Shown here one piece after another: positions 37,554-61,300 of a stretch of 64,000 nt of DNA. A program made the position numbers and the translations under genes. The DNA is taken from contig CAWCMR010000001.1 in NCBI GenBank assembly GCA_963796685.1, positions 64,001 through 128,000 on the forward strand, in the 5' to 3' direction. This DNA comes from an uncultured delta proteobacterium (GTDB taxonomy: Bacteria; Myxococcota_A; Polyangia; Fen-1088). Positions within the stretch are counted from its first letter, which is position 1. Each line of letters begins with the position of its first letter. Under the pieces are notes generated by a model. It saw nothing but the letters and a program-made list of their open reading frames with translations, was not told the DNA's origin and ran no database searches.

Positions 37554-37560
37554 CACTCAA

Positions 37561-44578: not shown

Positions 44579-46993
44579 TCACCCAGGACTTCCCACCCCT
44601 CCTTTGAATCGAAGCTGGTCGAGAAGCGAGGTGTACGCCGCAAAGGTTCCTTCCAGAGCCGATTCCATCGTGTAGCGCCGAGCGAAAGCGTGGGCCGCCC
44701 TTCCCATTCGCTGGCGCAGCTCGGGCTGTTCGAGCAGGTGCTGCAAGGCAGCCGCAAGCTCTTCCGGTCGGTCGGCATCCACGAGAATTCCGGTCTCGCC
44801 CGGAATGACGTTTTCGCACGCTGCCCCTCGGTTAGCGACCACGACGGGAATGCCCGCGGCCTGCGCCTCGACAACGGTATTGCCTAATGTCTCGGTCTCG
44901 CTCGGGCACACGAACACGTCTGCAGAAGCGTAGAGCTTCGCCAGCTTTCCGCCTGTTTGTTCGCCGGTGAAAATGATGCGCGGATCGCCACCGGCCTGAC
45001 GCCGCAGGTGATGAGCATGCGGCCCGTCACCGACCAGCAGAAGGCGCGCACCGGGTAGCTTCTCGGCCGTCTGGCGGAATCCGGTGACCAGCGCGTCCAA
45101 GCCCTTTTCCCGTGACAAACGACCGACGTAGAGCACCTTCGGCTCGCCATTGAGACCGAACTCGGCGAAGGCCTCGGGCTCGCGCTTGTCGGGTCGGAAA
45201 AGCGAATGGTCGATGCCGCGGGGAATGAGCCGAATCTTGTCCTCGGCAACGCCCAGCGCCAACAAGCGCTCGACCACGGCGCGTGAGGGTGCGAGCACCT
45301 GGTCGAGCTTGCCGTAGAACCACCCCACGAAGCTTGAGGCCATGGTGGCCATGAATCGATCGCGCGTAAGGCGTTCCACGTACTCGGGCAGATCGGTGTA
45401 GTATTGGCCGATCACGGGAATGCCCGCCATGCGCGCGACCGCAAGACCCACCAGTCCCATGGGTCCTGGAGTCGAACACTGAACCAAGTCGATGCGTTCG
45501 GTAACAAGGTAGTGCATCAGCGACGTCAGGCTGGGAACGCCGAACGCAATGGACTCGTAGTCCTTGAGCCTGTGCCATAAGACGCAGGGAATGCGCACAA
45601 CGCCTTCGTCGTCGGCGACGGTCTGTTCGCCATCGCCCAAGCCGACCAAGCGCAGGTCGCGACCTTCCAGCTTGGCCTGCGCGATCAATCGGCGCAGCCC
45701 CAGCGAAACACCATGCACGTCGTCGAGCGTATCGCAAAGGATGGCAACGCGTGGCAAGGACGGCTCTGGCAAGGAAGCGTCTAGCTGGCGGCAGAAGCCA
45801 CGGGCATTTCCCGTGTCACGGCGGAAGATGGCAACGCTCGACAGGTAGGGGATTGAAAGGGCAAGAGCCTTGGCCAGATCCGGTAGCGCATCCGTGGCGG
45901 CTGCCAGTTGCCCGCCGGCTACGGCTTCCGCCAGGGTCTTGAGCGCATCACGATTGGCTCGCACCAGAATGCGGTCGATGATTTGGTGGAGTGCTTCGTG
46001 CGTAGAGTCTTCGTGACCCTTCAGGATGGCGTCTTCGAAATCGAATTGTCGGTCAGCCTCGTCGAGATAGCTCGCGTAGCGGGTGATGGTCTGGCCCAGC
46101 GACGACGAGGACCCTTCGCCCAAACCCAACGACAGCTGTCCGGAATGGAGGAGCACGCCCGCCACCACACCGTAGACGTTGTGACAAAGCAAATCGGGAG
46201 TGGCGGTCAAACCGCCGGCGTCGGTGGCGTAGTTCCGGATGGCCTCGCGCAAGCCAGCAACCGTGGCCGGCCCTCGAAACACGGTATGGGCGCGCGCGAT
46301 GGAGAGGCCGGCATGGTCGTCCGATCCGCCAAACCAAGCGTAACGTCCATCCTGGTTCAGAAACGGGACCTGCGGATAAAGGTTCGCCCACCTGGCCAGT
46401 CGTTCGACAGACAATCCCGCCACCACGTTGCGCAGCCCCTGTTCGTGCGCTGCATCGCGAGCGCCGTTACGTAGCTCGAGACCGCGGTACATGAGCAGAC
46501 AACGTTGGATGTGACTGCGATCGAGGCGCAGGTTCACCGGGGAAAGCAAATGGCAGGCGAAGAAGGGGATGCCATGCTCGTCGAGGTACTCGACAAGCTC
46601 ATAGATATTCCGGCGCAACCGTTGGATCTCCACATGCTGGGCCTCGGAGATGTCGAGCACCAGCGTGTGGACGATGCAACCGTCCTCCGGGAAGGCAGCC
46701 GACACTTCTTCGCTGATGAAGGTGTCGTCAGGGTGCGACGCCCGCAGCTCGATCACCGCCTCGATCGTGTCGTGGTCGGAGATGGTAACGAGATCCATGC
46801 CTCGCTGTTTGCACAGCTCATAGAGTTGGTCCGGCTGGGTGTAGCTCTCGGACGCACCCACAGAATCCATGAGCCAATTGTTCGGAGCACGCGAGGCGTA
46901 GGAATGGACATGGGTATCCACGCGTACTTCGTTGTCTTTGATGGACTTGTCTATAACGTGGTTCACAACGTGGCGTAGAGTACTCCGCGCCAT
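44579..46993 (-). CDS. PHP-domain plus GT4 glycosyltransferase fusion
   Basis: DTHVHS, TISDHDT, GGSDDH PHP motifs; RGID, YVGRLSREKG, LYASADVF..PSETETLGN..EAQAAG GT4 motifs. Confidence 0.9.
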   Translation of the reverse strand: MARSTLRHVVNHVIDKSIKDNEVRVDTHVHSYASRAPNNWLMDSVGASESYTQPDQLYELCKQRGMDLVTISDHDTIEAVIELRASHPDDTFISEEVSAAFPEDGCIVHTLVLDISEAQHVEIQRLRRNIYELVEYLDEHGIPFFACHLLSPVNLRLDRSHIQRCLLMYRGLELRNGARDAAHEQGLRNVVAGLSVERLARWANLYPQVPFLNQDGRYAWFGGSDDHAGLSIARAHTVFRGPATVAGLREAIRNYATDAGGLTATPDLLCHNVYGVVAGVLLHSGQLSLGLGEGSSSSLGQTITRYASYLDEADRQFDFEDAILKGHEDSTHEALHQIIDRILVRANRDALKTLAEAVAGGQLAAATDALPDLAKALALSIPYLSSVAIFRRDTGNARGFCRQLDASLPEPSLPRVAILCDTLDDVHGVSLGLRRLIAQAKLEGRDLRLVGLGDGEQTVADDEGVVRIPCVLWHRLKDYESIAFGVPSLTSLMHYLVTERIDLVQCSTPGPMGLVGLAVARMAGIPVIGQYYTDLPEYVERLTRDRFMATMASSFVGWFYGKLDQVLAPSRAVVERLLALGVAEDKIRLIPRGIDHSLFRPDKREPEAFAEFGLNGEPKVLYVGRLSREKGLDALVTGFRQTAEKLPGARLLLVGDGPHAHHLRRQAGGDPRIIFTGEQTGGKLAKLYASADVFVCPSETETLGNTVVEAQAAGIPVVVANRGAACENVIPGETGILVDADRPEELAAALQHLLEQPELRQRMGRAAHAFARRYTMESALEGTFAAYTSLLDQLRFKGGVGSPG

Positions 46994-47113: not shown

Positions 47114-48208
47114 TCACAGACGAGATTCGGTGGCGATTGCACGGCTGTTGCAGTCGGATGTGGGAAGCTCAAGAACACTCCGGCGCGCGGCTGGTGTCGA
47201 GCTGCGTGTGCGCAGCCTCCGCGCAATGACGCCGGAAGCGTAACCCGACAGCAGACCCATGACGATATCGGGTACCCAATGGTGGCGCAGGTAGACAGTA
47301 GCAAGACATTGCGATACCGCGATGGGGGCAAAGATGGTGAAGAACAGCCGGGGCCTCCTCGGAAATGCCAGGTTGCCGAAACGTCGTGCGTATCCGAACG
47401 TGAAGACCGCCAGCGAACAGTGCAGCGAGGGAAATGACGACCGCGCACGTACAGGATCCGCCAAATCGAACAGGCGCTGTTGGATCTCGTAGATGCCCAG
47501 GAACGAGTGCAACCGTGGTGGTGTGAACGCACTCTGCAGAGGCGCGAAGAAGCGCGGCGGCCCGGCCGGGAGACACAGGCAGACGAAGAATCCCACTCCG
47601 AGTTGGAGGATGAGGGCCGAAGACATCTCTCGGAAGTCTTCTCGACGTCCGTGCCAAGCCAGGATGCCCGCAAGGGCCAAAGGCGCAACGAGGTAAAGGC
47701 TGTAGGTCAACGCCATCCAATCGGTTAGCAGGGGATGAAACAGGTGTCCCACCCAGACCGTCGGCTCCACCCCCAACCAGTCCATATCCAATCGGTAAAG
47801 GGCGCCTTCGACACTGCTCTTGCGCACGACCGCAGTATAGGTCTCGAGGGATTGAAACGCCCAGATGAGGATCATCACAGGTGCCCAGTCGCGAGCAGTT
47901 GCGCCGGCACGGGTCCAAAGTAGGCGGCTTGCGTCAGCACGGGTCGTCAGGGCCGCAGGAAGGTGGCGCAACATCGAGAGCAATACGAGGCCCGCCATGA
48001 CGCCACAACAGACGATGGCAGGTCCTCGGGCCCATTGAAAGGCACCGCCGCTAGCCCATACCAGGGTCGCGAGCGCCATGATCACGAAAATGGCCAGCGC
48101 CATGTCTGCGTCGAATATTGCCCAGCGAAAGACCGAAGGAGGATCTACCGGTTCCGAGAAGGTTCCGATCATGTCAAGGTCCCTGTTCTCGCCGTCCGAC
48201 GGCGCCAT
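47114..48208 (-). CDS. PAP2-superfamily membrane phosphotransferase (PAP2_3, Aur1/Ipt1-like)
   Basis: LPAGPPRF, SSFPSLHC, ATVYLRHHWVPD motifs; multiple TM helices. Confidence 0.85.
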   Translation of the reverse strand: MAPSDGENRDLDMIGTFSEPVDPPSVFRWAIFDADMALAIFVIMALATLVWASGGAFQWARGPAIVCCGVMAGLVLLSMLRHLPAALTTRADASRLLWTRAGATARDWAPVMILIWAFQSLETYTAVVRKSSVEGALYRLDMDWLGVEPTVWVGHLFHPLLTDWMALTYSLYLVAPLALAGILAWHGRREDFREMSSALILQLGVGFFVCLCLPAGPPRFFAPLQSAFTPPRLHSFLGIYEIQQRLFDLADPVRARSSFPSLHCSLAVFTFGYARRFGNLAFPRRPRLFFTIFAPIAVSQCLATVYLRHHWVPDIVMGLLSGYASGVIARRLRTRSSTPAARRSVLELPTSDCNSRAIATESRL

Positions 48209-48330
48209 TGCGAGCCAAGATAGCTTGGAAGCCAAGACGACGCCCCCTGTGTGTGCGCAATTTGGCACATTCGACACACAATGGTTGCAACAGTGGCAAT
48301 GACAGGGTTGGAATCTCGCGCCTTCGGCGG

Positions 48331-49131
48331 TCAAGGAGCTGGGCTCGGTGACGACCCCGCACCCGGATCGGGGCTGCGGCTGAAGGGGCGGAAAGCGAAA
48401 GCCTGTTGCCGAAAGTAGCCCGAGGGGAAATGGCCTTGCGCCGCAAGCCCGTAGGACATGGGCTTGCCGGCCGGAAGATGAGCCGTGCCGAACAGCCAAT
48501 CCCAGATAGCGAGCTTGGTGGAGAAGTTGATGTCGATGATTTCCACGGCGTGATGCCAGCGGTGCATTTCAGGTCCATTGACCAGGCGTTGCAGGAAACC
48601 CGAACGCACATCGAGGTTGCAATGGATGTACATGCCCCACATGGCGTCCACCACGCCTTTCCAAAGCACCACCTCGGGCGCGCCACCGAGAAGAACGATG
48701 GGCATGAACTCGATGCTCTGATTGATGAAGATTTCGAGGGCGTGAGAGCGCGAGCCACTTAGCCAATCCACGTCCTGGGTGGAATGATGGGCCTCGTGTA
48801 GCCGCCACAAGATGGGATTGCGATGTTGCCAGCGATGAAACCAGTAGATGTAGAAATCGTGGGTGACCACGAAGAAGAGAAGCTGCACTGGCACTGGCCA
48901 CGCCGAGATTATGTGCCATCGGCCGTGGTGTCCAGGACCGTCGATGGCTTCGATGAGTGCCTTGATGACAAGCCCCAGCACGCAACTCTGCACCAAGGTG
49001 TACATCACCAGGTCGGTGAGAAATCCGTTCCGCCATAGGCGCTGCTTGGGGGCGTACGGAAATCGACGTTCAAGGGCGATGAAGAGGAACGCGCCGACAA
49101 GAATGGTGGCCGCGGAGATCGCGGGCGTCAT
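48331..49131 (-). CDS. Sterol desaturase/fatty acid hydroxylase family protein
   Basis: YWFHRWQH, LHEAHHS, YIHCN, HRWHH His boxes; WDWLFGT. Confidence 0.92.
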   Translation of the reverse strand: MTPAISAATILVGAFLFIALERRFPYAPKQRLWRNGFLTDLVMYTLVQSCVLGLVIKALIEAIDGPGHHGRWHIISAWPVPVQLLFFVVTHDFYIYWFHRWQHRNPILWRLHEAHHSTQDVDWLSGSRSHALEIFINQSIEFMPIVLLGGAPEVVLWKGVVDAMWGMYIHCNLDVRSGFLQRLVNGPEMHRWHHAVEIIDINFSTKLAIWDWLFGTAHLPAGKPMSYGLAAQGHFPSGYFRQQAFAFRPFSRSPDPGAGSSPSPAP

Positions 49132-49150
49132 GCTTGCGTCACCGCGCGGG

Positions 49151-50065
49151 TCAGGCCAGACCTCGAGTAGCATCGGCGCTGGACACGCGCCGCAGTTTCT
49201 GACGCTGGGCCATCTCGGTGGCGTGGAGCCGCTTCACGCCGTCTCCGAGCGACCGCTCGATGTCCCGGATGTTGCTCACCAAACGCATGAGGCCACCGAT
49301 TTCGACCGATGCGGCATGATCCGACCCCCACATCGCTCGATCGAGGGTCACGTGCCTCTCGACGAACGTGGCCCCGAGAGTGACCGCTGCCCAGGTGGGT
49401 GAGAGCCCCGTCTCATGCCCCGAATAGCCAATGGGGCAGACGGGAAAGAGATCGCCCAGGGTCTGAATCATGCGCAGGTTGAGAGCCTCGAGTGGACAGG
49501 GATAGGCCGACGTGGAGTGCGCGATAAGAAGGCGATCCGTGCCAAGCAATTCAACTGCGCTGCGAATCTCCTCCATGGTCGACATTCCCGTGGAAACCAT
49601 CAGGGGGCGCCCCGTGGCGCGCAACTTGCGCAACAGGGTTTGATCGGTCAGTGAGGCCGAAGCGACCTTGTAGACCGGTGGGTCGAACACTTCCATGAAG
49701 TCGACGGCGTCTTCGTCCCAACACGAGGCGAACCAAAGCATGCCGCGGTCGCGGCAGTGGCGATCGATTTCGGCGTAGTCCGTGGCACCGAGCTCCACGC
49801 GATGCCTGTATTCCAAATAGGTCATGCGGCCCCACGGAGTGTCGCGCAGAACCTCCCGCTGTGTCGGGGGGACGCATTTGTCAGGCGTGCGCTTTTGGAA
49901 TTTCACCGCATCGGCGCCCGCCACGACCGCGCCGTCGATGAGGCGCTTGGCCAGGTCGACGGAACCGTTGTGGTTGACGCCGATCTCGGCAATCACGAAC
50001 ACGGGGTGGCCGGGGCCCACCCACTTGTTGCCAACACGTATGGAATTGGCCGTGGTTTCTTTCAT
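49151..50065 (-). CDS. N-acetylneuraminate synthase (NeuB) family protein lacking the C-terminal SAF domain
   Basis: IAEIGVNHNG, AVKFQKR, KVASAS, STGMS, GYSGHE, VERHVTLDR, GSDH. Confidence 0.93.
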   Translation of the reverse strand: MKETTANSIRVGNKWVGPGHPVFVIAEIGVNHNGSVDLAKRLIDGAVVAGADAVKFQKRTPDKCVPPTQREVLRDTPWGRMTYLEYRHRVELGATDYAEIDRHCRDRGMLWFASCWDEDAVDFMEVFDPPVYKVASASLTDQTLLRKLRATGRPLMVSTGMSTMEEIRSAVELLGTDRLLIAHSTSAYPCPLEALNLRMIQTLGDLFPVCPIGYSGHETGLSPTWAAVTLGATFVERHVTLDRAMWGSDHAASVEIGGLMRLVSNIRDIERSLGDGVKRLHATEMAQRQKLRRVSSADATRGLA

Positions 50066-50649
50066 GGCGACCTCCTTCTCGAGAGCTCGTCGCACGAGCT
50101 ATCCTCAAAACGCAGGAAACGGATCCACTCGGCAATCTGGCGGAACGCGCCTTCGCCGCCACGCCGGGTGCAGCGGACGTGAACGCGATCGAGCACCGCG
50201 GGCTCGGCGTCTGCGGGCGCGCATATCAACCCCTCGCTCGCGAGGGCTTCCATCACGCCCAGATCGTTGACGTCGTCGCCGATGTAGGCGACTTGGGCAG
50301 AGGTCACGCGGTGCTCGACCAGAATGGACGCCAGGGCGGCGCGTTTGTCGTGCACCCCGCCCCACAAGCGGACCGCCAGCTTCTGAGCGCGGCGGACGAC
50401 GATGGCCGAGTCCTCCCGTGTCACGATAGCCGTCGCGACGCCGATCTCGCGCAGTCGTTCGCACCCCATGCCGTCGCGCAAGGAAAAGCGCTTCATTTCC
50501 TCGCCGCGCTCCGAGTAGTAGACGGTCGCGTCGGTGAGCACGCCGTCGCAGTCGGTAAGCACGAGCTTCAACCGACGCACGCGACGCTCGGCCTCGATGG
50601 GATCGAGGGTGAGAACGGGAGACTCTTCACTCATCACCATGTCGTCCAT
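50062..50649 (-). CDS. KdsC-family HAD phosphatase
   Basis: DCDGVLTD, FSLRDGMG, YIGDDVNDL, GGEGAFR. Confidence 0.92.
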   Translation of the reverse strand: MDDMVMSEESPVLTLDPIEAERRVRRLKLVLTDCDGVLTDATVYYSERGEEMKRFSLRDGMGCERLREIGVATAIVTREDSAIVVRRAQKLAVRLWGGVHDKRAALASILVEHRVTSAQVAYIGDDVNDLGVMEALASEGLICAPADAEPAVLDRVHVRCTRRGGEGAFRQIAEWIRFLRFEDSSCDELSRRRSP

Positions 50650-51458
50650 CCTCCGTCCACCACCAGGTCTGCCCCGGTCATATAGCTGGAGGCGTCGCTG
50701 GCCAGGAACACCACGGCCCCGCGCAATTCGCTCGGCTCGGCCATTCGACCAAGGGGCGTGCGGTCGGAGTACTGCTTTACGAAATGCTCATCCTGCGCTT
50801 GGGCCACGCCGCCCGGGCAAAGCGTGTTGCAGCGAACCCGCTCGCTGGCCCAGTACGTGGCGATGAACCGACTCAGCGCCGACACTGCGCCCTTGCTCGC
50901 CGAGTACACAGGAGACTTCCAGAACCTCTGGTCCCCGTCGGGACGACGATAAATGCGCTGGTCCGGCGCCACCAACCCGTAGGTCGAACCGATATTGATG
51001 ATGGAACCTCCGCGCTGGCCTGCCACGATCTCGGCGCCGAGGATCTGACACGCCAGAAACGTGCCGGTGAGATTGACATCGAGAAACCTTTGCCACGCGT
51101 GCAGGGGATAGCGTTCGAAACGGGTGGTCTGCTCGGTCTCGTTTTCCTCGAAACGGTCGTTGATGGCCGCGCTGTTCACCAGCACGTCCAAGCGACCCAG
51201 GCGTTCGCGCACGGCTGCGCGCAAGGCTTCCACCGACTCCGGTTTGGTCACATCGAGCGGCAGGCCAAGCGCCTGCTCGCCTCCCGCCGCCGCGAGGTCT
51301 TCGGCCTGCCGCTTGCAGGCGAACGGGTCGATGTCGGCGATGACGACCGTCGCGCCTGCCGCATGCAAGGCAAGGGCAAACTCCCGCCCCAGAAGTCCAA
51401 GCCCGCCGGTGACCACGGCCACCTTGCCGGCAAGCGAGAATGGATCAGCCACGGCCAT
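50634..51458 (-). CDS. SDR family oxidoreductase
   Basis: VTGGLGLLG, LVNSAA, YSASKG, LVVDGGWT. Confidence 0.93.
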   Translation of the reverse strand: MAVADPFSLAGKVAVVTGGLGLLGREFALALHAAGATVVIADIDPFACKRQAEDLAAAGGEQALGLPLDVTKPESVEALRAAVRERLGRLDVLVNSAAINDRFEENETEQTTRFERYPLHAWQRFLDVNLTGTFLACQILGAEIVAGQRGGSIINIGSTYGLVAPDQRIYRRPDGDQRFWKSPVYSASKGAVSALSRFIATYWASERVRCNTLCPGGVAQAQDEHFVKQYSDRTPLGRMAEPSELRGAVVFLASDASSYMTGADLVVDGGWTTW

Positions 51459-52827
51459 GCGCCACCTCGCTGGTTGCGTGCCTTCCAACGCGCGGACGGG
51501 TGTTGAAGCCGGCCACCCTGCGGAAGACGGGCTCCATAGGTGCGCCCCGCAAATAGCTCGCCGGTGCTCCGCTCGCCAAGGCCTGCTTGAGCACGGTCAA
51601 GGTCTCGCCGTAGGCGTCCATCAACTGATCGATGTCGGCCTCGCTGTGCGAAAAACAGAGATTGTGGAAGCCCTGCCACAGCACGCCCCGGCGGAGTAGC
51701 TCCTGCTGCACGAGCGACTTCATGATCAGCGGGTCGACGCCAGCTGCGCGGCCTGTGGCAGCGAAGGTCACCAGGGTACGGCAGCCCATGCCCACACAAT
51801 GGGTGAATTCGAGATCGAGACCTGCGGCCAAACCCGCGTAGCGATCACGCAAATGCGACCCCAGGGTGTCGAGACGGCCGGCCACGTCGCGCGTCTTCAT
51901 CACCTCGAGGGTGGCCTGCGCGGCCGCTAGCGATAGCGCCTCGCCGCCGAAGGTGGTGAAGAAGAAGACCTCTCTTTCGCACAGGCGCATCATCTCCGCG
52001 CGCCCGGTTAGTACCGAGAGCGGCATGCCGTTGGCGATGGCCTTGGAGAAACACGCCAGATCGGCGGTGACGCCGAAGCGCTGTTGCGCGCCTCCGAGCG
52101 CCGCGCGAAATCCCGTCCACATCTCGTCGAAGATGAGTAGGCTGCCATTTTCGCGGCAGGCGCGCGCCACCTCGGCCAGGAATCCATCCTTGGGCCATTC
52201 GAAGACCATGGGCTCGAGGATCACGCACGCCACGTCGTCGGCCAGGGCGGCACGCAGAGAGTCGGGGTCGTTGTATGCGAAGGTGTACGACAACTTGGCG
52301 ACGTCTTCCGGGATACCTCGGCTGCGGTCGGTGACCGAGACGTACCAGTCATGCCAGCCGTGATAGCCGCAGCAGATCACCTTGCCGCGGCCGGTGAAGG
52401 CGCGCGCTAGGCGAACCGCGGCGCTGGTGACGTCGCAGCCGGTCTTCGAGAAGCGCACCATCTCGGCGCCGGGCACGAGAGCGGTCACGGTCTCGGCGAC
52501 CAGGACCTCCAGCGGGTGGGGCAGCGAGAAGGTGATGCCGTCTTCGAGTTGCGCACGGATCGCGGCGTCCACCTCCGGGAAGGCGTAGCCGAGCGAAAGC
52601 GGACCCACGCCCATGCTGAAATCGATGTACTCGTTGCCATCGACGTCCCAAACGTGGCTGCCGCGACCGCGCGTCAGATACTTCGGCGCGACGCCGTTTA
52701 CGAACTGTCCCACGCCCTTGGCAAGCGTCTGGGTGCCTGCCGGGATGAGCGGGCGGGCCCGTTCATAGAGCGCGTTCGAGGCGTCGATGCACGGGAAGGT
52801 GGGATCGAGAGTGATGGACTTAGGCAT
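51445..52827 (-). CDS. Class III aminotransferase (glutamate-1-semialdehyde aminomutase-like)
   Basis: WDVDGNEYID, GYHGWHDW, FDEMWTGFR, FSKAIANG. Confidence 0.9.
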   Translation of the reverse strand: MPKSITLDPTFPCIDASNALYERARPLIPAGTQTLAKGVGQFVNGVAPKYLTRGRGSHVWDVDGNEYIDFSMGVGPLSLGYAFPEVDAAIRAQLEDGITFSLPHPLEVLVAETVTALVPGAEMVRFSKTGCDVTSAAVRLARAFTGRGKVICCGYHGWHDWYVSVTDRSRGIPEDVAKLSYTFAYNDPDSLRAALADDVACVILEPMVFEWPKDGFLAEVARACRENGSLLIFDEMWTGFRAALGGAQQRFGVTADLACFSKAIANGMPLSVLTGRAEMMRLCEREVFFFTTFGGEALSLAAAQATLEVMKTRDVAGRLDTLGSHLRDRYAGLAAGLDLEFTHCVGMGCRTLVTFAATGRAAGVDPLIMKSLVQQELLRRGVLWQGFHNLCFSHSEADIDQLMDAYGETLTVLKQALASGAPASYLRGAPMEPVFRRVAGFNTRPRVGRHATSEVAHGRG

Positions 52828-53743
52828 GGAGTCTCCTCGTTGCAAGGGCGTGGCGCACGCGCGCGGCAATGGCGGGTCCCGTGAAACCCTCGGTGTGCAG
52901 CACATCCGGCAAGAGGGCCGGCTTGAACCAACGGTCGAGCGCGAGCGGTAGCACGAGTGGGGATAGACGCTCGCGCAAACAGAGCTCGGCGAGGATACTG
53001 AAAAGACCGCCGACCTTGAAATGGTCTTCCACGGTCACCAGCACGCGGGCGCCTGCCGCGTGCTCGAGCAGCGCGGCCTCGTCGAGCGGCACCAGGGTGC
53101 GCAGGTTGAGCACCCCCGCATCGATGCCGGCCGCGCGCAACTCTTGCGCCGCGGCCACCAGCTCGGGCACGAGCAAGCCGTAGCCGAGCAGCATCACGGC
53201 CTTGCCGTCGAGGAGAAGCTCCGATTGGCCGAGGGCAAAAGGTGTGTGATGCTCCACCCGGCAGGGCGAGGCATTGAATCGCACGTAGGTCGGGTGCGGG
53301 CTGGCGAGCACGGTCGGCATCGCTTCCACAAGCTCGCGCTCGTCGCTCGGACACACGATGTGCATGCCGGGGATTCCGCGCATGAGCGCCACGTCTTCGA
53401 TGGCCTGGTGGGTCGGCCCGTTGCCATCGGACAGAAATCCGGGTACGGCGCCCACCAGCTTCACCGGCAGGCCGGAGATCCCGACGTCGGTCCGGATGAA
53501 CTCGAAGGCGCGCATGACCAAGAACGTGGCCAGCGCGTGCACCACGGGGATGCGTCCACGCAAGGCCAGGCCTGTGGCCGCGCCGATCATGGTTTGTTCG
53601 CAGATCCCGACATCGATGAAGCGTTCCCCGAGCAGGGCCGGCACGCCGCGGATAGCGGCGCGGTTTTCGGCGGTCATCACGACGATGCGCGGGTCGCGCT
53701 CTGCCGCGGCCAGGAGCACGTCTTGGTAAGTCGCCGCGCTCAT
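52820..53743 (-). CDS. Transketolase, C-terminal (pyrimidine-binding) subunit
   Basis: DVGICEQ, RAFEFIR, GPTHQAIED, TVEDH..GGL. Confidence 0.92.
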   Translation of the reverse strand: MSAATYQDVLLAAAERDPRIVVMTAENRAAIRGVPALLGERFIDVGICEQTMIGAATGLALRGRIPVVHALATFLVMRAFEFIRTDVGISGLPVKLVGAVPGFLSDGNGPTHQAIEDVALMRGIPGMHIVCPSDERELVEAMPTVLASPHPTYVRFNASPCRVEHHTPFALGQSELLLDGKAVMLLGYGLLVPELVAAAQELRAAGIDAGVLNLRTLVPLDEAALLEHAAGARVLVTVEDHFKVGGLFSILAELCLRERLSPLVLPLALDRWFKPALLPDVLHTEGFTGPAIAARVRHALATRRLHA

Positions 53744-54621
53744 CGCACCACCAGGGTTTCGGACGTGAGCTGTGCCTGCGCGCTGCCAGCCAGCTCGGCG
53801 AGCAAGGCGTTCACTTCTTCGTCGGAAAAGCGCGCGAACCAGCGATCCGCGCGGCGCTCGATGCTGGGCAGCCCCTTGCCACGCACGGTGTGCGCGAGGA
53901 CGGCGGTGGGGCGGCCGTCCACAAGCGGCAGCGTAGCAAAGCCGCGTTCGAGATCGATGAAGTCGTGGCCGTCCACCTCGACCACACCGAACCCGAAGGC
54001 ACGCCACTTGTCGGACAGGGGTTCGAGTGGGATGAGAGATTCGGTCTCGACGTTGGCCTGGAATTCGTTGCGGTCGATGATGACCACCAGGTTCTGCACC
54101 CGATGGGCGGCTGCAACGAGCGCGCCTTCCCAGACGCTGCCTTCGTCGAGCTCGCCGTCGCCCAGCAAGACGAAGACCCGGCCGGGCCCGCCATCGAGGC
54201 GAATCCCCATGGCAACCCCGATAGCCACCGACAAAAGATGTCCGAGCGATCCCGAATGGAATTCCACGCCCGGGATGGCCCGGTTGGGATGCCAGTAGAT
54301 GTCGTCGCGAGGATCCAGATGATGCCGCAATCGTTCGCGCTCGATGTAGCCGTGCTCGGCCAAGGTTCCGTAGAGAGCGGGAACGTCGTGGCCCTTGGAA
54401 AGAAAGAAGTAGTCGCGATCCCGACTCGTCACCGTGCTGGGACTGATGGCCAACACGCGTTCGTAGAGGAACACGACGAGATCCGTGCACGAGAGCGAAG
54501 CGCCGATGAAGCAGCCGCCGCCTCCCGACATGCGCACGATGTGCTGGCGCACGCGAAAGGCGCGGTCTTCCATGCGGTGAAGATCCTCCGGGGTGATCGG
54601 AATGCGGGGCGGATCTCTCAT
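53740..54621 (-). CDS. Transketolase, N-terminal (ThDP-binding) subunit
   Basis: RDYFFLSKGH, SGSLGH, GDGELDEGSVWE...IDRN, TVRGKG. Confidence 0.92.
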   Translation of the reverse strand: MRDPPRIPITPEDLHRMEDRAFRVRQHIVRMSGGGGCFIGASLSCTDLVVFLYERVLAISPSTVTSRDRDYFFLSKGHDVPALYGTLAEHGYIERERLRHHLDPRDDIYWHPNRAIPGVEFHSGSLGHLLSVAIGVAMGIRLDGGPGRVFVLLGDGELDEGSVWEGALVAAAHRVQNLVVIIDRNEFQANVETESLIPLEPLSDKWRAFGFGVVEVDGHDFIDLERGFATLPLVDGRPTAVLAHTVRGKGLPSIERRADRWFARFSDEEVNALLAELAGSAQAQLTSETLVVR

Positions 54622-55427
54622 GGCGACTCCAGCCGGACCGTGTCCTTGGCGCTGACGGTCCGCAGCTCGTGGAGGTGGTTGCGATACCAGTTCACGCCTG
54701 CCAGATGGCTGTTCAAGCGGAACACATCGGGGCGCCCTTCCAGAAAGGTCAGAATGTCTGCTAGAGAAAAGGGCTTGGCTTCGGGCTGGTGCAAGCCTTC
54801 GAATACCGCTGTCACGAAGGCGAGATCGTCGGGGTAGTCGATGGTGAAACGGTGGCTCATGGAGTAGTCGAGACCCGTCTCCCAGGTCACGTTGTGAATG
54901 CGGAAACGCTCTGGGTTTTCCCAAAGAAAGGGGGTGGTATGCTCGCGTTCGAAAGATCGAGTGGCTGCAATCCAAGCCTGCTCGAGCGCGTGCATCGGTA
55001 TGACCTCAACGTCGTTGCCGTCGGGATAGGTGGCTGGGTGGAGATTGCTCACGAAGTCGAAGTCTTCTGGATGGGCGCGATAGACCTCGATAACGCGATC
55101 GATGATGCCGGGATCGATGAGCGGGCAATCCGAGGGAATTTTCACCACCGCCGTGGCGTCCGTGGCTCGCCCTGCGCGCAGGTGGCGATCGAGGAGATCC
55201 GTGGCGTGGCCGCGAAAGCATAAGAACCCGTGCTCTTCCGCCATGTCCGCGATGGCGTCATCCGCCACAGCCGTGGTCGTGGCCACGACGATCTCATCCA
55301 GCGTGCGGGAAGCGCGCACGCGTTCCAGCATCCACAGAATGAGCGGCCTGCCGAGCACCGGCTTTAGGACCTTGCCCGGCAGACGCGACGAGCCCATCCG
55401 AGCCTGAATGACCCCGACGACTCTCAC
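54618..55427 (-). CDS. SpsF-like cytidylyltransferase
   Basis: IQARMGSSRLPGKVL, VVATT..DD, SDCPLIDP, REHTT, RFTIDYPDD. Confidence 0.9.
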   Translation of the reverse strand: MRVVGVIQARMGSSRLPGKVLKPVLGRPLILWMLERVRASRTLDEIVVATTTAVADDAIADMAEEHGFLCFRGHATDLLDRHLRAGRATDATAVVKIPSDCPLIDPGIIDRVIEVYRAHPEDFDFVSNLHPATYPDGNDVEVIPMHALEQAWIAATRSFEREHTTPFLWENPERFRIHNVTWETGLDYSMSHRFTIDYPDDLAFVTAVFEGLHQPEAKPFSLADILTFLEGRPDVFRLNSHLAGVNWYRNHLHELRTVSAKDTVRLESP

Positions 55428-55469
55428 CGTGTACCTCCGCCGCTGACGGTTGCTATCGCCGGGCTTGAG

Positions 55470-56519
55470 CTATCCGCGCTGGTCGACATGTGCTTCTCTC
55501 GTTGTACAAGAGAGAAGCAAAAGTCCTGTGACGATCCAAAGACACTCCTTCGTCCGTTTCGTTACAAATAGAGCAGCGCCCGCGGTTGCCGCATGCGTCG
55601 TCCCGGCAGCATGCGCAAGAACCACCTCGGCCGCGTCTTGAATGCCGAGTCCAGCTGGAAGAAAGAGTGCCGCGGATCGCAGGAACGAGCTCAATGCCTC
55701 GAAGCGCCACGCGGTCATGAACGGCACGTGGACCCCGCACAGGGATGCAATGACATAGGTATCAAGCGCCTCGAAGAACCACTGCGCAAGGTAAAGACAG
55801 AAGCCCACGACCAGGATGCCCTTGGTACCCGTCAAAATCCGTCGCGCCGAATCATCGATACGGGCAAATGCCTCCACACGCACGACAGCCCAGCGGGCAA
55901 GCCGGCGAAGGGGCAGCCTGGCCAGCAGCCGACGAAGCCGTCCGGCCATGGCTCCCCCCCTCAGCGCCAGCAACACAAAGCCGCCAGTCGTTGCATTGAA
56001 GACGATGCCCGTGACCAGCCCCCATCGCAGAAACCATGCCAGCAGCGACGATGCCGTCGACGAATCCGCCCCAGGCGCGGGTAGCGGCAGAGCACCGCCC
56101 AGCAGACCCACCGCCATATAGACCGCATCGCTCGTGACGATGATGCCCTTTCGCACCGCCACGCTGGCCGCACCCTCTGGAAAAGGCACGCCGCAATGCC
56201 GGCGCAATAGAATTGCGCTCGTAACGTCGGCGACGACGGAACCACCGGGAAGGGCCAGGAGCAGCGCTTCCGTGGCCAGCCGCACGTGCAGCAAACGCCA
56301 GAACTTCACGGGTTGGCCGGTCTGCCGCAGAAGCAGGCCCCACGCCAGAGTATCCGCCACCATCGAACCCAGGTAAGGCAATGGCGCCAAGGCGAGACGC
56401 GGTCCCGCTTGGGCCAGGATGAACCAGAGTCGCGGGAGGTCCGCGCGTGCAAGCAGCCCAATCACGATGACGAGGGCGGCGACCAACGGCAGGGTCTGCA
56501 GGACCCGTACGAGGTTCAC
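55470..56519 (-). CDS. Lysylphosphatidylglycerol synthase TM (UPF0104, flippase-like) protein
   Basis: Multiple TM helices; LPGG, LPAGLGIQD motifs; start uncertain. Confidence 0.75.
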   Translation of the reverse strand: MNLVRVLQTLPLVAALVIVIGLLARADLPRLWFILAQAGPRLALAPLPYLGSMVADTLAWGLLLRQTGQPVKFWRLLHVRLATEALLLALPGGSVVADVTSAILLRRHCGVPFPEGAASVAVRKGIIVTSDAVYMAVGLLGGALPLPAPGADSSTASSLLAWFLRWGLVTGIVFNATTGGFVLLALRGGAMAGRLRRLLARLPLRRLARWAVVRVEAFARIDDSARRILTGTKGILVVGFCLYLAQWFFEALDTYVIASLCGVHVPFMTAWRFEALSSFLRSAALFLPAGLGIQDAAEVVLAHAAGTTHAATAGAALFVTKRTKECLWIVTGLLLLSCTTREAHVDQRG

Positions 56520-56536
56520 TCTAGCTGGGATCGCGG

Positions 56537-57721
56537 TCAGCAAGTTGTCTTCCGCAGCCCTTCTTCCCGGGAAGACAGGTCCCGGGTCCCGCGGCTCTGG
56601 GCGAGCAGGGCGCGGCAGACCTCGGCGATGCGACGTGCGCTGGTACCCCCATTTTGAATCGGACACAGGCGCCGAAGCTCCTCGACGTCGAAGTAGGAAT
56701 GGACCTCCTTGTCGAGGGCCAGACCGACGTATGCCGTCGACGAAAACTGTGTCACCAAAACGTCACAGTTGGCGATCATTTCTTCGGCGCTCCCCGAATC
56801 GTAGACCTGTGCGCTGGGGGCGAGCCTGGCCAGCTCGGCCCGAGCCCGGGCGGCGTTTTCATTCGGGTGGAGCTTCCAAAGAATCTGGCGGCCCCTGGCG
56901 ATGCGTACTACCTCGCGTATCAGTTTGGGGCGGTTCTCCCAACGGGCAGTCTCTCGGACGTCCGAGCTGCAGACGAGCACATAGCCGCGGTGGGGGAAGT
57001 CGTTGCGCCTGAATCGCTCGCAGTTGTCGAAGTTTGGGATGCCGGTGACGACGATCTTCTCCGAGAGGATCCCCTTGCGAACGAACAGATCACGGTACCC
57101 GGCGCTGGCCACGCAGAAGCGATCGTAGGCATGGCTTAGCCCAGTGGCCGAAGAGGTGGCAGTGATCCAGGGGGGCAGTTTCAACGTCTTGACGAGCCAG
57201 AAGATCACATCCTCCGGGTCGGTCATCCCTTCCTGTACGAGCAGGATCGGCCGTCCTCGCAGGTTGCGGGGGACGGCCAGGTCGGAACATGTCACCGCCA
57301 GATCGTAGTCGCCGACTTTTCCGCCGAGATCGAGTGGAAGGTAGCGTTCTTGCAGATAGGCGATACAACGCGCCCGCAGCTTGCTTCCGAGCGCGGTCGT
57401 CTCGAGAATCCGCAGACGTCGGACAGCCTCGAGGAGGCCGTCACAGTAATACCAAGTGAAGGCGTGGTCGCAATCCGGCAGCTCGGCGGCGATCTGCTCG
57501 ACCTGTTTGGTCTGGTTGATGGTGCCACCGATGAACAGGATGCGCGGACGGCTCCGAGCGGGCGATGCCGAACGGGGCGCTGGCGGAAATGTCCGCCGCA
57601 GCAGACGCGCGGTGACGCTCGGAACCAGCCCAAACGCAATCACCAGCAGGCGTCCGATGAAGGACCCGACGGCCAGCACGCCGCTGACGGCGAGGAGCCA
57701 GAGAGTCGCGAGCCAAGCCAT
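56537..57721 (-). CDS. Hypothetical GT-B-fold protein with N-terminal membrane anchor
   Basis: LVQEG, IVVTGIPNFD, WKLHPNE, CDVLVTQFSS motifs of the GT-B/CDP-glycerol transferase/sialyltransferase-like group. Confidence 0.65.
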   Translation of the reverse strand: MAWLATLWLLAVSGVLAVGSFIGRLLVIAFGLVPSVTARLLRRTFPPAPRSASPARSRPRILFIGGTINQTKQVEQIAAELPDCDHAFTWYYCDGLLEAVRRLRILETTALGSKLRARCIAYLQERYLPLDLGGKVGDYDLAVTCSDLAVPRNLRGRPILLVQEGMTDPEDVIFWLVKTLKLPPWITATSSATGLSHAYDRFCVASAGYRDLFVRKGILSEKIVVTGIPNFDNCERFRRNDFPHRGYVLVCSSDVRETARWENRPKLIREVVRIARGRQILWKLHPNENAARARAELARLAPSAQVYDSGSAEEMIANCDVLVTQFSSTAYVGLALDKEVHSYFDVEELRRLCPIQNGGTSARRIAEVCRALLAQSRGTRDLSSREEGLRKTTC

Positions 57722-57944
57722 GCGCCCGGATTGTAGTCCACGGCCGACGCTTGTGTCAGTGTTCCGGTGGGTTCCCCTCACAAATGCGGCAAGGTGCGCG
57801 CCGCGGCACATCCGTCGGCCTCGCTCAGGTCACGCGCCGCAACTTCCAGCGCTCGAACAGAAACTCGCTCTATGGACTGGCGCTGGTCATTGGCCATCTG
57901 AGCGAAAGCGCCTGCATGTTCGATCTTGCGCTTCTCGTAGGGCA

Positions 57945-58395: not shown

Positions 58396-61300
58396 TCAGT
58401 CTTGTGCTCTTATGTAGACGTCAACTCCTCCGTTGACTATTCCTGGCACGGCTAGTTGGAAGATCTGCGGCACCAGGCACATCTGGGGAACTACAGCGTT
58501 GCTGATGCGCGGTGTTCTTCCAGCGAGTTGTCCCGAGCTGTTGAGCACCCACAGTCTCGAATAGACTTCCGCCTCCTGATAATAATTATTGTATGAGAAG
58601 CTGTCGATGCCATAGCTAAGAACCAAGTCGCCCGTAGCTGGGCTGATCAGCTCGACGCCACGATTTCCGGACGCGCAACCGCTAAATTCCAGAGCAAAGC
58701 CAAAGTCGATTTCCCATTCTCCGTCTGCAACCTGCGCGACACTCAAGTGCAAGAGATCGTAGGGCGAAGTGCTCCAAAACCAGGAGCTTGGCGAAGACAC
58801 CACAGGAATTCCCGAAGACACGTCGATGTAGACTGGTATGCCTGTTGGGCTTGGCATGGTCCCGTCTACGCACGTCGTCGTAGCGATGGAGCAGGTGCCT
58901 GCCGCGCAAGTCTTGCCGGAAGAACACACGTTGCCGCAGGCACCGCAGTCGTTCGGGCTGGTCTGCAGATTCACACAAACGTTGCCACAAGAGGTCATGC
59001 CAGCCGGGCATACCGAGGTACAAACACCGCTCACGCACGTCGCGCCGGTCTGGCAGGCGGCCCCGCAGGCTCCGCAGTTGTTGGCATCGCTGTTCGTGTC
59101 GACACAAACCGACCCGCAGGCGGTCAGGTTGGTAGCCTCGCATGTGCTCGGAATAGAACCGCTCGAACCACCGGCCGCACCACCTGTTGCAGCAGAGCTA
59201 CCGTCAAGCGGCGTTCCTCCCGCAGCGCCCGAGCCACCAGTTCCCCCAGTGCCACCGTCAGGCGTCGCGTCGCTTTCCGAACCACCCGTGCCTCCAAGGG
59301 CAAGGGCAAAGTCGACCTCTGCAATCGCGCCGATAGTAACGGTCGCCGTCTGTGGGTTGAGTGTAGCGGTTTCGCCCGTCGGTGGGCGGATGCGGAGTTG
59401 GTAGCTACCTGCGGACACCTGGTTTATCAAGTAGGTTCCAGTGGTGTCAGTAAGCGTGCTCGCAAACGTCGCGCCGGTGCTGTCCAGCGCGTCGACTTCT
59501 ACGCCAGCTACTGCCCCAAAAGGGTCGGTGATATGCCCGGAAATAGTGCCCATATCGGTTTGTAAAGTTCCGACTACGATGGCTCGCGTCGCAGCGTTGT
59601 TTGAGGTGACCTGGTCCGTGAAGGTCAGGCTCGGATCGATGTCGACCTCGACAATGTAGATTCCCTCGCCCTGGCTTTTCCAGGACGCGTACACGACGCG
59701 TGAGCCGTAGTCCGGGCTTCCGACGGACAAGCTCGCAATCGTCGTTTTGCCGATCCATACCTTGCTCGTCGAACCCGCCGCGGTCACATAGATGTTGATT
59801 GGCACGTCGGTTGCAGCACTCGTCGGGGCCGATGACCAGAAGTGAATCTGAGCCGCAATCGTAATCTCCTCATTCTCGGCTGGGTTGTTCTTGGAGAAGG
59901 CGATGTCATCCGAAACCACGCGAAGATCGCTCAGCGGAACCGTCGCGGGCGGCACCGCAGGCTGACCGCCGGCCCACGACCACGTCCAGCTCCCGCCGCC
60001 AGAACCACCGGGCGATGGGACGTAGTTCCATTGGCCTGGCCCCCACTCCGCCGGTGGGGAACCTGGCGGTGGCGGCGCGGGCGGCAGCGGGATGACGTTG
60101 AACACCAGTTGGCGCGTTCCACTCAGCGTCTGGTCGGAGACGCTCATCCTCATCTGATGGGCGCCGACCAAGGCAGGGGCGAGCAAGGTCTGGGAGAAAT
60201 TCCCGTTGGTGTCCGTGTAGACGGTTCCAAAAATCGAGGAGGTACCATCAGGAGCCACGAGCGTGATATCAACCAGCCCGCCTTTCACCGGGTAGCTGGT
60301 GTTTCTGACTCCGCCGACCAGCACATCGTAGATGGCTTGCCCGCTGAGAGTGAAGAAGGATGATGAGTAAATGCTCGACGGAAGACTGCCTGTGACCAGG
60401 ATGTTGGCGAGCGTGGTCGGGGTCGAGATACGAAGGATGGTCGAGGCATCGTTGTCGGTCTTGTCGCTCTCCGTAACAAGCCCGGCGGGGTCGACCACGG
60501 CCTCGATCACATGGTCTCCGCCTCCCGTTGTGGAGAAGGTGAAGGACACACTACCAACTCCATTGGGAGGCAACGCCGTAAGCGTCGTCTGACCGACTGG
60601 ATTACCGAAATCGAGCAACTGCACTATCGCCTGCGGAGACGCTACGACTCCGAGATTGTGGACGTTCACCGTCACCGTCGCCGATGAGCTCGTGCTCGCG
60701 GCGAGACTGATGTCGTTGGCGCTGATAGCCAGGTCCGGCAAGGGGGCGGTCCCTGGAACCTGAATGGTAACGTCGATGGTCGAGTAAAGCACGTTGCCAT
60801 CGTCGGTCGAGATCTGAAGTAACACATTATCGTAAGTACCAACAGAGGCTTGGGTAGCGTCCACAGTAACGGCAGCCGCCGCGGTCGCACCAGGCGGGGT
60901 GGCGAGGGCACCCGTCGGCGAGACAAAGAAAGCAACACCCGCAGGCGGATTCACGACGGCGAGAGTTGCCGAGTGAGGAGCCGTTCCGGTGTTCGTCAAG
61001 TAGACGGAGATGGTTTGTTGCGTTCCCTGCTGGACGGTGAATGCGTAGCTACATGATGTCTGAATCGCGGTTCCGCAAAGACTACCTGCCGAAGTGTAAA
61101 CGACGCTGATATCGAAGTCGAACCGGGTGTTTAGCCCCAAGGCGTCCGTGACTGTCGCCGACACTGTGAAGGTAATGGCTCCGCTCGCCGGTGCGGTCCA
61201 TGTGACCTGCGAGCCTCCCGTGGTGTCACTCTGCCCAGAAAGAGTGCCGCCCGACGCCAGCCAGGCGAAGGTCATGGCATTGGCCTGAGGATCGGTCGCC

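Follow-up and report, generated by a model that had tools for sequence, protein, structure and literature searches.

A conserved, uncharacterized gene cassette of many bacterial phyla that most likely couples a sialic-acid-like amino sugar to a membrane lipid

Introduction

Bacterial sialic-acid-like sugars are known on polysaccharides, lipooligosaccharides and flagellins. A stretch of 64,000 nucleotides from the genome of an uncultured delta proteobacterium (GTDB lineage Bacteria; Myxococcota_A; Polyangia; Fen-1088; GenBank assembly GCA_963796685.1, contig CAWCMR010000001.1, positions 64,001 to 128,000 of the forward strand; hereafter the window) raises the question of what such a sugar is attached to when the genes of its pathway stand in one run with those of a glycosyltransferase-B (GT-B) fold protein, a flippase-like protein and a membrane hydroxylase of the FA_hydroxylase family. 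A preliminary description made from the sequence alone had proposed that the sugar is transferred to a membrane lipid, possibly a sphingolipid, and not to a polysaccharide. The follow-up analysis reported here identifies the genes between 48331 and 57721 (minus strand) as a self-contained, horizontally spread and uncharacterized cassette found in many phyla. From sequence and a structural model we predict, with moderate confidence, that its product is an amino ulosonic acid activated with cytidine monophosphate (CMP), sialic-acid- or Kdn-like and with its amine free, and that this sugar is transferred to a membrane lipid. The finding is more general than the preliminary description: a conserved unnamed cassette, found across many phyla, by which such a sugar is most likely made and coupled to a lipid of the membrane.

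Results

A conserved unit with a shared gene order in at least ten phyla

The source assembly (7.3 Mb, 26 contigs, 88.6% complete, 6.5% contamination) carries twelve minus-strand genes between 44.5 and 58 kb of the window (Table 1). Genes were assigned with open reading frame (ORF) calls and with Pfam and NCBIfam models, bit scores being compared with family cut-offs, and the eleven genes of the preliminary description, all within 47114-57811, were recovered as co-oriented, often overlapping genes of the families it had named. The genes from the cytidylyltransferase to NeuB overlap successively by 4-16 nt (with starts guided by conservation), and ~120 nt separate the PAP2_3 gene from each of its neighbors. 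How far the GT-B and flippase-like genes overlap or stand apart is not fixed, because the start of the latter is uncertain and probably lies downstream of 56666.

Within the phylum, 400 genomes were searched with the window NeuB and ~20 kb around each orthologue were mapped by tblastn. Orthologues were found in 24 of the 400 (49-69% identity), with a clear gap to ordinary NeuB proteins (at most 42%). The extended block is present at only three of the 24 loci (L033, L034 and L035), while a KdsC-like phosphatase lies near NeuB at 16 of the other 21. At the three loci the block runs from the hydroxylase through the GT-B/HpnL pair; the genes on either side have no relation to one another or to the window, which places the borders of the unit at the hydroxylase and at that pair.

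For a wider survey, an alignment of four GT-B proteins (A1) was used to scan one genome per species, in which at least 583 stretches encode a relative. The locus counts given below refer to the best-scoring 80 of these, which are not a random sample; gene presence was mapped by tblastn with the window proteins, and adjacency counts allow for the many loci cut by contig ends. The 80 loci span at least ten phyla (with Polyangia, Sorangium, Haliangiales, Ignavibacteria, Chlorobiota, Bacteroidota, Acidobacteriota, Gemmatimonadota, Planctomycetota, Verrucomicrobiota, Poribacteria, NC10, Nitrospirota, Calditrichota, Methylomagnum and others) and show a shared gene order: GT-B protein, cytidylyltransferase, N- and C-terminal transketolase subunits, aminotransferase, short-chain dehydrogenase/reductase (SDR), KdsC, NeuB and hydroxylase, often with an HpnL-like gene just upstream. 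Six core genes (GT-B protein, cytidylyltransferase, aminotransferase, SDR, NeuB and hydroxylase) occur together and in the same order at 31 loci, 27 of which have both transketolase subunits and four of which lack the transketolase. At 47 of the 76 loci with room for it, the cytidylyltransferase gene begins no more than 1.5 kb downstream of the GT-B gene; the hydroxylase follows NeuB at 35 of the 41 loci with a NeuB orthologue (within 400 nt at 34), and at 26/80 loci the GT-B gene has an HpnL-like gene within 2.5 kb. An arrangement kept in the same order at 31 of the best 80 loci, over at least ten phyla, is far beyond chance. The preliminary description had let its interpretation depend on the hydroxylase, flippase and PAP2 genes being conserved with the sugar genes; two of the three are so conserved, namely the hydroxylase and the flippase-like gene, and the PAP2 gene, found at none of the 80 loci, is not. 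The GT-B gene is present in 6/200 other genomes of the class, and the patchy distribution fits an accessory, laterally moving unit.

The unassigned ORFs of 83 loci were clustered and their representatives scanned with family models. At L034 a glutathione-synthetase-like ATP-grasp gene (12430-13575, minus strand) stands in place of the split transketolase, beside ~1.7 kb of unassigned sequence. At Ignavibacteria-type loci the cassette is flanked by a Metallophos phosphoesterase (L099, L100, L105, L108, L131 and L133) and by GT9 heptosyltransferase-like genes (L085, L097, L108, L110, L118 and L130).

Table 1. Minus-strand genes at 44.5-58 kb of the window and their occurrence among the best-scoring 80 loci with a GT-B relative
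Position	Strand	Gene product	Family or remark	Loci (of 80)
56537..57721	-	GT-B fold transferase, unnamed family	ORF open to 57811, start taken at M31	
55470..56666	-	LPG_synthase_TM (UPF0104, HpnL-like) integral membrane protein, proposed flippase	PF03706	28
54618..55427	-	SpsF/KdsB-type cytidylyltransferase (CTP_transf_3)	PF02348	50
53740..54621	-	Split transketolase, N-terminal (thiamine diphosphate-binding) subunit	PF00456	42
52820..53743	-	Split transketolase, C-terminal (pyrimidine-binding) subunit	PF02779 + PF02780	42
51445..52827	-	Class III (omega-type) aminotransferase, glutamate-semialdehyde-aminomutase-like	PF00202	47
50634..51488	-	SDR	adh_short_C2	50
50062..50649	-	KdsC-type HAD phosphatase (Kdn-9-P/Kdo-8-P phosphatase-like)	TIGR01670	35
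49151..50095	-	NeuB-family PEP-condensing synthase without SAF domain	PF03102	41 (orthologue >55% identity)
48331..49173	-	Membrane di-iron FA_hydroxylase family protein (OlsE-like), last gene of the conserved unit	PF04116	37
47114..48208	-	PAP2_3 membrane protein, neighbor and not conserved member	PF14378; ORF open to 48499	0
44579..46993	-	804-aa protein with C-terminal GT4, neighbor and not conserved member	GT4 domains	2 (weak, 31% identity)

The membrane proteins of the cassette argue for a lipid acceptor

The GT-B protein is the only transferase inside the conserved block, and it reaches no family cut-off (Glyphos_transf PF04464, 16.4 bits against 22.1; TIGR04396, 36.8 against 125). Among 8000 candidates scored, 4810 belong to its family at an E value of 1e-20 or better, almost all annotated as 'hypothetical protein' and almost all without a Pfam domain. 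Its predicted model (mean predicted local distance difference test score, pLDDT, 90.4) has an N-terminal transmembrane helix at residues 2-44, a feature shared by its kin in Polyangia. Two natural fusions link it to the other membrane proteins of the unit: in P0086 (675 aa) an N-terminal hydroxylase, 64% identical to that of the window, precedes the GT-B domain, and in P0092 (689 aa) an N-terminal LPG_synthase_TM domain does so. The window hydroxylase itself belongs to FA_hydroxylase (PF04116, 102.8 bits against 31) and stays below the OlsE equivalog model (118.4 against 475); the flippase-like protein belongs to LPG_synthase_TM (PF03706, 77.2 bits against 33.4) and stays below HpnL (TIGR03476, 83 against 195.65). 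The fusions, the helix and the gene order together argue that GT-B protein, hydroxylase and flippase-like protein share one membrane substrate, and the two fusions in particular give good support to a membrane lipid as the acceptor.

The same GT-B family occurs in a second context, at 11-12 of the 80 loci (L083, L088, L092, L104, L106, L112, L115, L116, L117, L121, L129 and L134) from Planctomycetota, Verrucomicrobiota, NC10 and a betaproteobacterial metagenome-assembled genome. Here a homologue with 55-59% identity stands among genes of the long-chain amino-alcohol lipid type: a 1150-1210-aa fusion of fatty acyl-AMP ligase (FAAL), carrier domain (ACP) and alpha-oxoamine synthase, two genes for an ABC-2 exporter, a 400-aa protein that matches GNAT weakly (E 2.6e-8 in one of two tested) and a reductase of the NAD-dependent epimerase family. 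An excerpt of PMC11087976 gives the bacterial ceramide pathway as serine palmitoyltransferase (Spt), the acyltransferase bCerS and the NDUFA9-like reductase CerR. By analogy, this second gene set appears to run parallel to that pathway, with presumed homology of the GNAT-like protein and the reductase to bCerS and CerR, and it looks like an undescribed long-chain amino-alcohol lipid pathway.

These observations bear on the most ordinary alternative, a nonulosonic-acid pathway that decorates a polysaccharide, capsule or glycoprotein, the membrane genes either exporting an undecaprenyl-linked intermediate or being unrelated. Surface-glycan sugars are, by established logic, made with NeuB, a haloacid dehalogenase (HAD) phosphatase and a cytidylyltransferase; the best sequence family of the GT-B protein, TIGR04396, is named 'surface carbohydrate biosynthesis protein', GT9 heptosyltransferase-like genes lie upstream at 6/80 loci, and Leptospira O-antigen cluster families are among the language-model neighbors of the GT-B protein. 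However, the TIGR04396 score is far under its cut-off, and both the fusions to hydroxylase and flippase-like domains and the adjoining amino-alcohol lipid genes of the second context speak for a lipid. Family scans found no polysaccharide export or polymerase genes in the window, and neither the block nor the window has a Wzx, a Wzy, a polymerase or an ABC capsule exporter; the Wzx/Wzy, flagellin, Maf, NeuC and PseB/LegB families, whose absence from the cluster had already been noted, are likewise missing from the 13 proteins of 44.5-62.4 kb and from 25 other ORFs of the window. We consider this alternative unlikely.

The sugar genes and a transketolase without its phosphate site

The prediction that a sialic-acid-like amino sugar is the group transferred to the lipid comes from the remaining genes, whose family membership is clear and whose scores stay below the equivalog cut-offs. 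NeuB (PF03102, 251 bits against 22.1) is the only strong NeuB in the genome and falls below TIGR03569 (248.3 against 399.65) and PseI (195.9 against 340.25); its ORF of 314 aa has the NeuB domain at 52-288 only, and the SAF domain of characterized NeuB/PseI proteins was not found. The phosphatase belongs to the KdsC-type subfamily TIGR01670 (116.7 bits against 106.95), below the equivalogs for Kdn-9-P phosphatase (NF058599, 125.4 against 180) and NF007019 (119 against 208), and its presence in the block implies a phosphorylated NeuB substrate and not free N-acetylmannosamine. The cytidylyltransferase (PF02348, CTP_transf_3, 104 bits) has 6oew as its top PDB match (E 2.4e-36), and the SDR (adh_short_C2, 178.2 bits) has sugar-acid enzymes as its nearest named families (gluconate 5-dehydrogenase, mannonate oxidoreductase and KduD). 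The aminotransferase can be assigned to class III only (PF00202, Aminotran_3, 161.3 bits; HemL TIGR00713, 239.5 against 527.3; PRK06209, 388.4 against 486), and among its relatives in the PDB are aminoglycoside C-6' aminotransferases and an aminopentol aminotransferase, which act on sugar aldehydes and aminopentol. As the block has no acyltransferase, the sugar amine would stay free.

The split transketolase (Transketolase_N PF00456, 86.9 bits; Transket_pyr PF02779, 103.9; Transketolase_C PF02780, 63.5) has an N-terminal subunit with 55-69% identity across its 42 loci and a C-terminal subunit whose top PDB match is the split transketolase 6yaj (E 2.2e-39). The equivalent of H473 of Escherichia coli transketolase, which we take to be the catalytic histidine, is a histidine in the window and in all 39 orthologues aligned. 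The equivalents of R358, H461 and R520, which presumably form the substrate-phosphate site, are A, V and A in the window, as opposed to R, H and R in the two canonical transketolases of the same genome (contigs C15 and C5). Among the 39 orthologues, the H461 equivalent is V in 36, the R358 equivalent is R in two, and the R520 column has R in none, some having R one position later. The loss of the phosphate-binding residues suggests a non-phosphorylated acceptor, which weakens the earlier proposal that the enzyme acts on a sugar phosphate and fits a transketolase step after the phosphatase. The transketolase and the aminotransferase together would yield a 2-amino-1,3-diol end. The genome has a second split transketolase-like pair (contig C25:565074-567024), in which the H461 and R520 equivalents are G and T and the R358 equivalent is kept.

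Transketolase and omega-transaminase are combined in synthetic cascades to give 2-amino-1,3-diols, and the same enzymes could in principle serve the lipid and not the sugar: transketolase, aminotransferase, SDR and hydroxylase would then build or tailor an Spt-free sphingoid-like base, the transketolase attaching a ketol unit to a long-chain aldehyde, the aminotransferase forming the 2-amino-1,3-diol and the hydroxylase acting like a C4 hydroxylase, while NeuB, KdsC and the cytidylyltransferase provide a Kdn-like head group. The missing phosphate-site residues, the class III relatives that use ketones and aldehydes other than those of amino acids (aminopentol included), the fusion of the hydroxylase to the GT-B protein and a genome in which no Spt-like gene was found are all in keeping with such a route. 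However, most carriers of the transketolase version also hold an Spt-like gene, so that the cassette is not a substitute for Spt; the block has no N-acyltransferase, the closest named families of the SDR are sugar-acid enzymes, and the transketolase is missing from 4/31 loci with the six core genes and replaced by the ATP-grasp gene at L034. A lipid-building role for these four enzymes seems improbable. As a substitute for Spt in particular, the transketolase was rejected: its presence in the cassette does not track the absence of an Spt-like gene.

Lipid A and ceramide are unlikely acceptors in this organism

In this 88.6%-complete assembly no match was found to LpxC, LpxB or LpxK, and WaaA gave only a 23-bit fragment. 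Lipid A was rejected as the acceptor on these grounds and is an unlikely one here. LpxC was likewise found in none of the 26 genomes sampled from the same family and in only 51/201 of the class, and much of Polyangia looks free of lipopolysaccharide.

The sphingolipid acceptor proposed in the preliminary description found no support in the genome itself. The check for serine palmitoyltransferase returned no Spt-like gene, the best match to NF047600 (141.7 bits against 640) being a frameshifted BioF-like gene, and tblastn with Spt-like proteins of Sorangium and Polyangia found only that gene. An absence from an assembly of this completeness is not proof. Orthologues of the oxoamine synthase fusion, the GNAT-like protein and the reductase, or other long-chain-base machinery, were not found in the genome by tblastn either. 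The BioF-like gene (contig C25:1351161-1352199) is the sole alpha-oxoamine synthase of the genome, with matches in two frames that reflect a frameshift or an assembly error. On present evidence the acceptor in this organism is thus neither of these two lipids; a glycerolipid or a hydroxylated amino lipid is a possible candidate.

In other lineages the sphingolipid idea fares better, one line of support being the oxoamine synthase cassettes next to GT-B homologues described above. Spt-like ORFs are present in 33 of 50 carrier genomes (NF047600, 450-575 bits, below the cut-off of 640), a count that covers carriers alone, without a control set of non-carriers, and hence is not a test of association. 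In five examples checked, Spt outscores every other family by more than 100 bits, and hits of the 300-360-bit class are KBL or BioF. No Spt-like gene was found in the other 17 carriers, which include six of the seven closest Polyangia. Chlorobium limicola makes an aminoglycosphingolipid whose sugar is said to be neuraminic acid, and in the green sulfur bacteria sampled the GT-B gene is near-universal: it is present in 106/121 sampled genomes of the Chlorobia class, forms an adjacent pair with the HpnL-like gene at 6/6 loci, and is accompanied by a NeuB orthologue with 66-69% identity in 5/5 complete-looking genomes, by an adjacent KdsC-NeuB pair at a second site in 4/4, and by Spt-like genes in 4/4. 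A link of the cassette to the Chlorobium lipid (Jensen 1991, as cited in an excerpt of PMC11762602) is suggestive, the gene content fitting in part only.

That the sugar goes onto a sphingolipid in this very organism, with the PAP2_3 protein as an Aur1/Ipt1-like head-group enzyme of the same pathway, is very unlikely. It draws on the Spt-like genes of the 33 carriers and on excerpts of PMC10626005 and PMC7203096 that name Chlorobiales and Bacteroidota as known sphingolipid producers. A further point in its favor is that five Polyangia loci have a different PAP2_3 protein inside the cassette, with 178.4 bits on the phosphoinositol dihydroceramide synthase model NF052609 (cut-off 480). The window PAP2_3 protein (PF14378, 52.9 bits against 27), which had been taken for a member of the pathway, scores 18.7 bits on that model and is 31% identical to the in-cluster PAP2_3 over 86 residues only. 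It was rejected as a cassette member, its orthologues at eight other Polyangia loci lying beside no cluster gene; that neither an Spt-like gene nor the second-context genes were found in the genome counts against this reading as well.

The fold of the GT-B protein

The model of the GT-B protein has two Rossmann-like domains with a cleft between them and aligns with many GT-B enzymes at Z 12-17 over ~270 residues, which makes it a member of the GT-B superfamily. In Foldseek and VIA-align comparisons NeuC comes first (Z 17.4, root-mean-square deviation 3.7 over 273 residues) and UDP-GlcNAc 2-epimerases with NeuC included reach Z 16.5-17.4 (Foldseek E ~5e-10), followed by TagF (15.3) and TarL (14.6). 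The comparison with sialyl- and Kdo-transferases that had been recommended earlier did give similarity to polysialyltransferase (13.3) and WaaA (12.8), below both the epimerases and TagF. A PDB profile search returned only the TagF-like Cps3D (E 1.2e-3). The alignment A2 of 78 GT-B sequences has invariant QEG and HPNE motifs, which in our view resemble the D/E-D/E-G and HP motifs of bacterial sialyltransferases, and the language-model neighbors include TagF-like, Leptospira O-antigen and alpha-2,8-polysialyltransferase clusters; the first and last of these, both users of CMP-linked donors, point to a CMP donor as a lead only. The fold, as modeled, allows a CMP-donor transferase and does not prove one.

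A further, highly improbable possibility is that the GT-B protein provides NeuB with its aldose as a UDP-sugar 2-epimerase or hydrolase of the NeuC type, the real transferase being encoded elsewhere: NeuC and other UDP-GlcNAc 2-epimerases (Z 16.5-16.7) are the top structural matches and 4 of 120 listed relatives have a precomputed PF02350 (Epimerase_2) match, but the window protein itself has no Epimerase_2 match at E 0.01 or better, TagF is only ~2 Z units behind NeuC so that the ranking singles out no family, a transmembrane anchor, two membrane-protein fusions and a conserved linkage to lipid genes in genomes without NeuB ill suit a soluble precursor enzyme, and the phosphatase of the block implies a phosphorylated substrate.

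Surroundings of the cassette

The 804-aa protein next to the PAP2_3 gene consists of 420 N-terminal residues without an assigned family and a GT4 part resembling lipid glycosyltransferases (155.8 bits on the GlcNAc-phosphatidylglycerol synthase model, cut-off 480). It was rejected as a cassette member on its occurrence (Table 1), as was a PHP phosphoesterase domain in it, for which the sole Pfam match was PHP_C (E 0.019), with no match in the PDB sequence search. A scan for promoters and terminators gave counts at chance level, with a single promoter-like site at 57759-57730, immediately ahead of the GT-B gene if that gene starts at M31.

Directly upstream, 58396-62397 encodes a secreted-looking protein of 1333 aa with CARDB, PKD-like, Big_9 and CarboxypepD_reg domains and an MXAN_6577-like cysteine-rich region, of a type common among myxobacterial surface proteins. 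Downstream, between the PPK2 and GT4 genes, lies a full-length SecY gene (42748-44094, 400.8 bits), not part of a ribosomal protein operon, that may be a second copy. Just beyond the cassette region on the same side, 28365-42696 holds a run of the phosphate-scavenging type with Metallophos (28365-30722), Ppx/GppA (30677-32137), 5'-nucleotidase C domain (35171-36157), Exo_endo_phos (36411-37553), phospholipase-C-like Phosphoesterase (37561-40614) and PPK2 (41590-42696) genes, and the lipid genes could be part of a neighborhood for lipid remodeling under phosphate starvation. The window also contains a second-messenger signaling cluster (17087-25368; HD-GYP-type HD_5 with GAF, a PilZ protein, EAL, GGDEF and MCP) and, at its end, a response regulator with an HD_5 domain (62926-63996).

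Discussion

The data show which gene families are present, how these are conserved and ordered, two fusions and a fold; from these we infer an order of chemical steps, a donor for the GT-B protein and the kind of product. NeuB would condense an aldose phosphate with phosphoenolpyruvate (PEP), the KdsC-type phosphatase would remove the phosphate, and the SDR would oxidize a hydroxyl of the free sugar acid. In most versions of the cassette the split transketolase would then add a two-carbon ketol unit to the non-phosphorylated carbonyl intermediate, before the class III aminotransferase converts the carbonyl to an amine and the SpsF-type enzyme forms the CMP-sugar. At the inner membrane the anchored GT-B enzyme would transfer the sugar to a lipid hydroxyl, which the FA_hydroxylase protein may have made, or else this protein may modify the lipid product, and the LPG_synthase_TM protein would flip the product outwards. 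The idea of a sugar pathway that feeds a membrane lipid and not a polysaccharide is thus supported, while the PAP2_3 protein and a sphingolipid in this organism find no support and a transketolase acting on sugar phosphates has become less likely.

Several observations weigh against this interpretation. The fold search, with epimerases at its top, singles out neither sialyl- nor Kdo-transferases, and some listed relatives carry the Epimerase_2 match mentioned above. None of the 12 genomes with the GT-B and oxoamine synthase cassette has a NeuB orthologue, so that the GT-B family is not always a user of this sugar and, given a second context without NeuB, is tied to lipid more constantly than to the sugar. 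The compact Chlorobia-class genomes have HpnL-GT-B and KdsC-NeuB pairs, but no aminotransferase orthologue was found in them (0/5), nor a hydroxylase nearby. Among close kin the cassette is rare (0/5 genomes of the same genus, 3/26 of the same family), and no acceptor lipid pathway can be named in the genome itself. A bolder extension of the predicted coupling of sugar and lipid, which we hold to be unlikely, is that in a lineage that seems to make neither lipid A nor ceramide the mobile cassette alone builds a zwitterionic, ganglioside-like outer-membrane lipid: the 2-amino-1,3-diol formed by the transketolase and transaminase would either lengthen the nonulosonic acid to an unprecedented eleven-carbon amino sugar acid or give an Spt-free sphingoid base, the hydroxylase would make the acceptor hydroxyl, and the GT-B proteins would be a new CMP-sugar:lipid transferase family and the missing enzyme for the green sulfur aminoglycosphingolipid of 1991.

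Among the closest known counterparts is the Kdo8N pathway of Shewanella (KdsA, KdsC, the oxidase KdnB, the aminotransferase KdnA, KdsB and WaaA). Both would make a phosphorylated ulosonic acid via PEP, remove the phosphate with a KdsC-type phosphatase, oxidize and transaminate the free acid, activate it with CMP and transfer it to a membrane lipid with a GT-B enzyme. In contrast with that pathway, the cassette has a NeuB-family enzyme and not KdsA, an SDR oxidase, a class III aminotransferase and an unnamed GT-B protein that is not GT30; it adds the split transketolase, the membrane hydroxylase and the flippase-like protein, and lipid A genes were not found in its genome. The 9-phosphate route to Kdn and Neu5Ac, represented by the Bacteroides Kdn-9-P phosphatase (NF058599), shares the grouping of NeuB with a KdsC/Kdn-9-P-phosphatase-like HAD protein and a cytidylyltransferase. 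The cassette differs from it in scores below the equivalog cut-offs, a NeuB without SAF domain, the lack of an acetyltransferase, the extra aminotransferase, SDR and transketolase, and the membrane lipid context.

The GT-B protein resembles the CMP-releasing GT-B enzymes (TagF/TarL, polysialyltransferase and WaaA) in fold and, weakly, in sequence (Glyphos_transf, Cps3D), whereas it reaches no family model, UDP-GlcNAc 2-epimerases score as high or higher, and the known enzymes have neither its N-terminal membrane anchor nor its hydroxylase and flippase-like fusions. For its partners, OlsE and Sur2/Scs7 are comparable in FA_hydroxylase membership and visible histidine-rich di-iron motifs, and OlsE is the best NCBIfam model of the hydroxylase, although the score is well short of that equivalog and the window-type hydroxylase is coupled, and sometimes fused, to a glycosyltransferase-fold protein. 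The flippase domain of MprF and HpnL share the LPG_synthase_TM family and the genetic pairing with a lipid-modifying enzyme; here, however, the HpnL cut-off is not reached, and neither an aminoacyl-phosphatidylglycerol synthase domain nor a hopanoid gene context is present. Bacterial glycosphingolipids (of Sphingomonas, Caulobacter and Chlorobium limicola) are parallel in that a lipid without phosphorus carries an acidic or amino sugar in a Gram-negative envelope, but no Spt-like gene was found in the window genome and no aminotransferase orthologue in the compact Chlorobia genomes.

In the literature searched, the coverage of which leaves out most subscription journals, no paper on this gene set was found, nor a description of a dedicated and widespread genetic system that puts a sialic-acid-like sugar on a membrane lipid. 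The transferase family, still unnamed, has thousands of members spread over many phyla; nearly all green sulfur bacteria sampled have it, as do Sorangium strains, and the proposed pathway is directly testable in culturable carriers. If it is right, the cassette would provide the genes for an orphan lipid class, a new CMP-sugar:lipid transferase family together with a natural transketolase for non-phosphorylated substrates, and a candidate outer-membrane component in bacteria without lipopolysaccharide.

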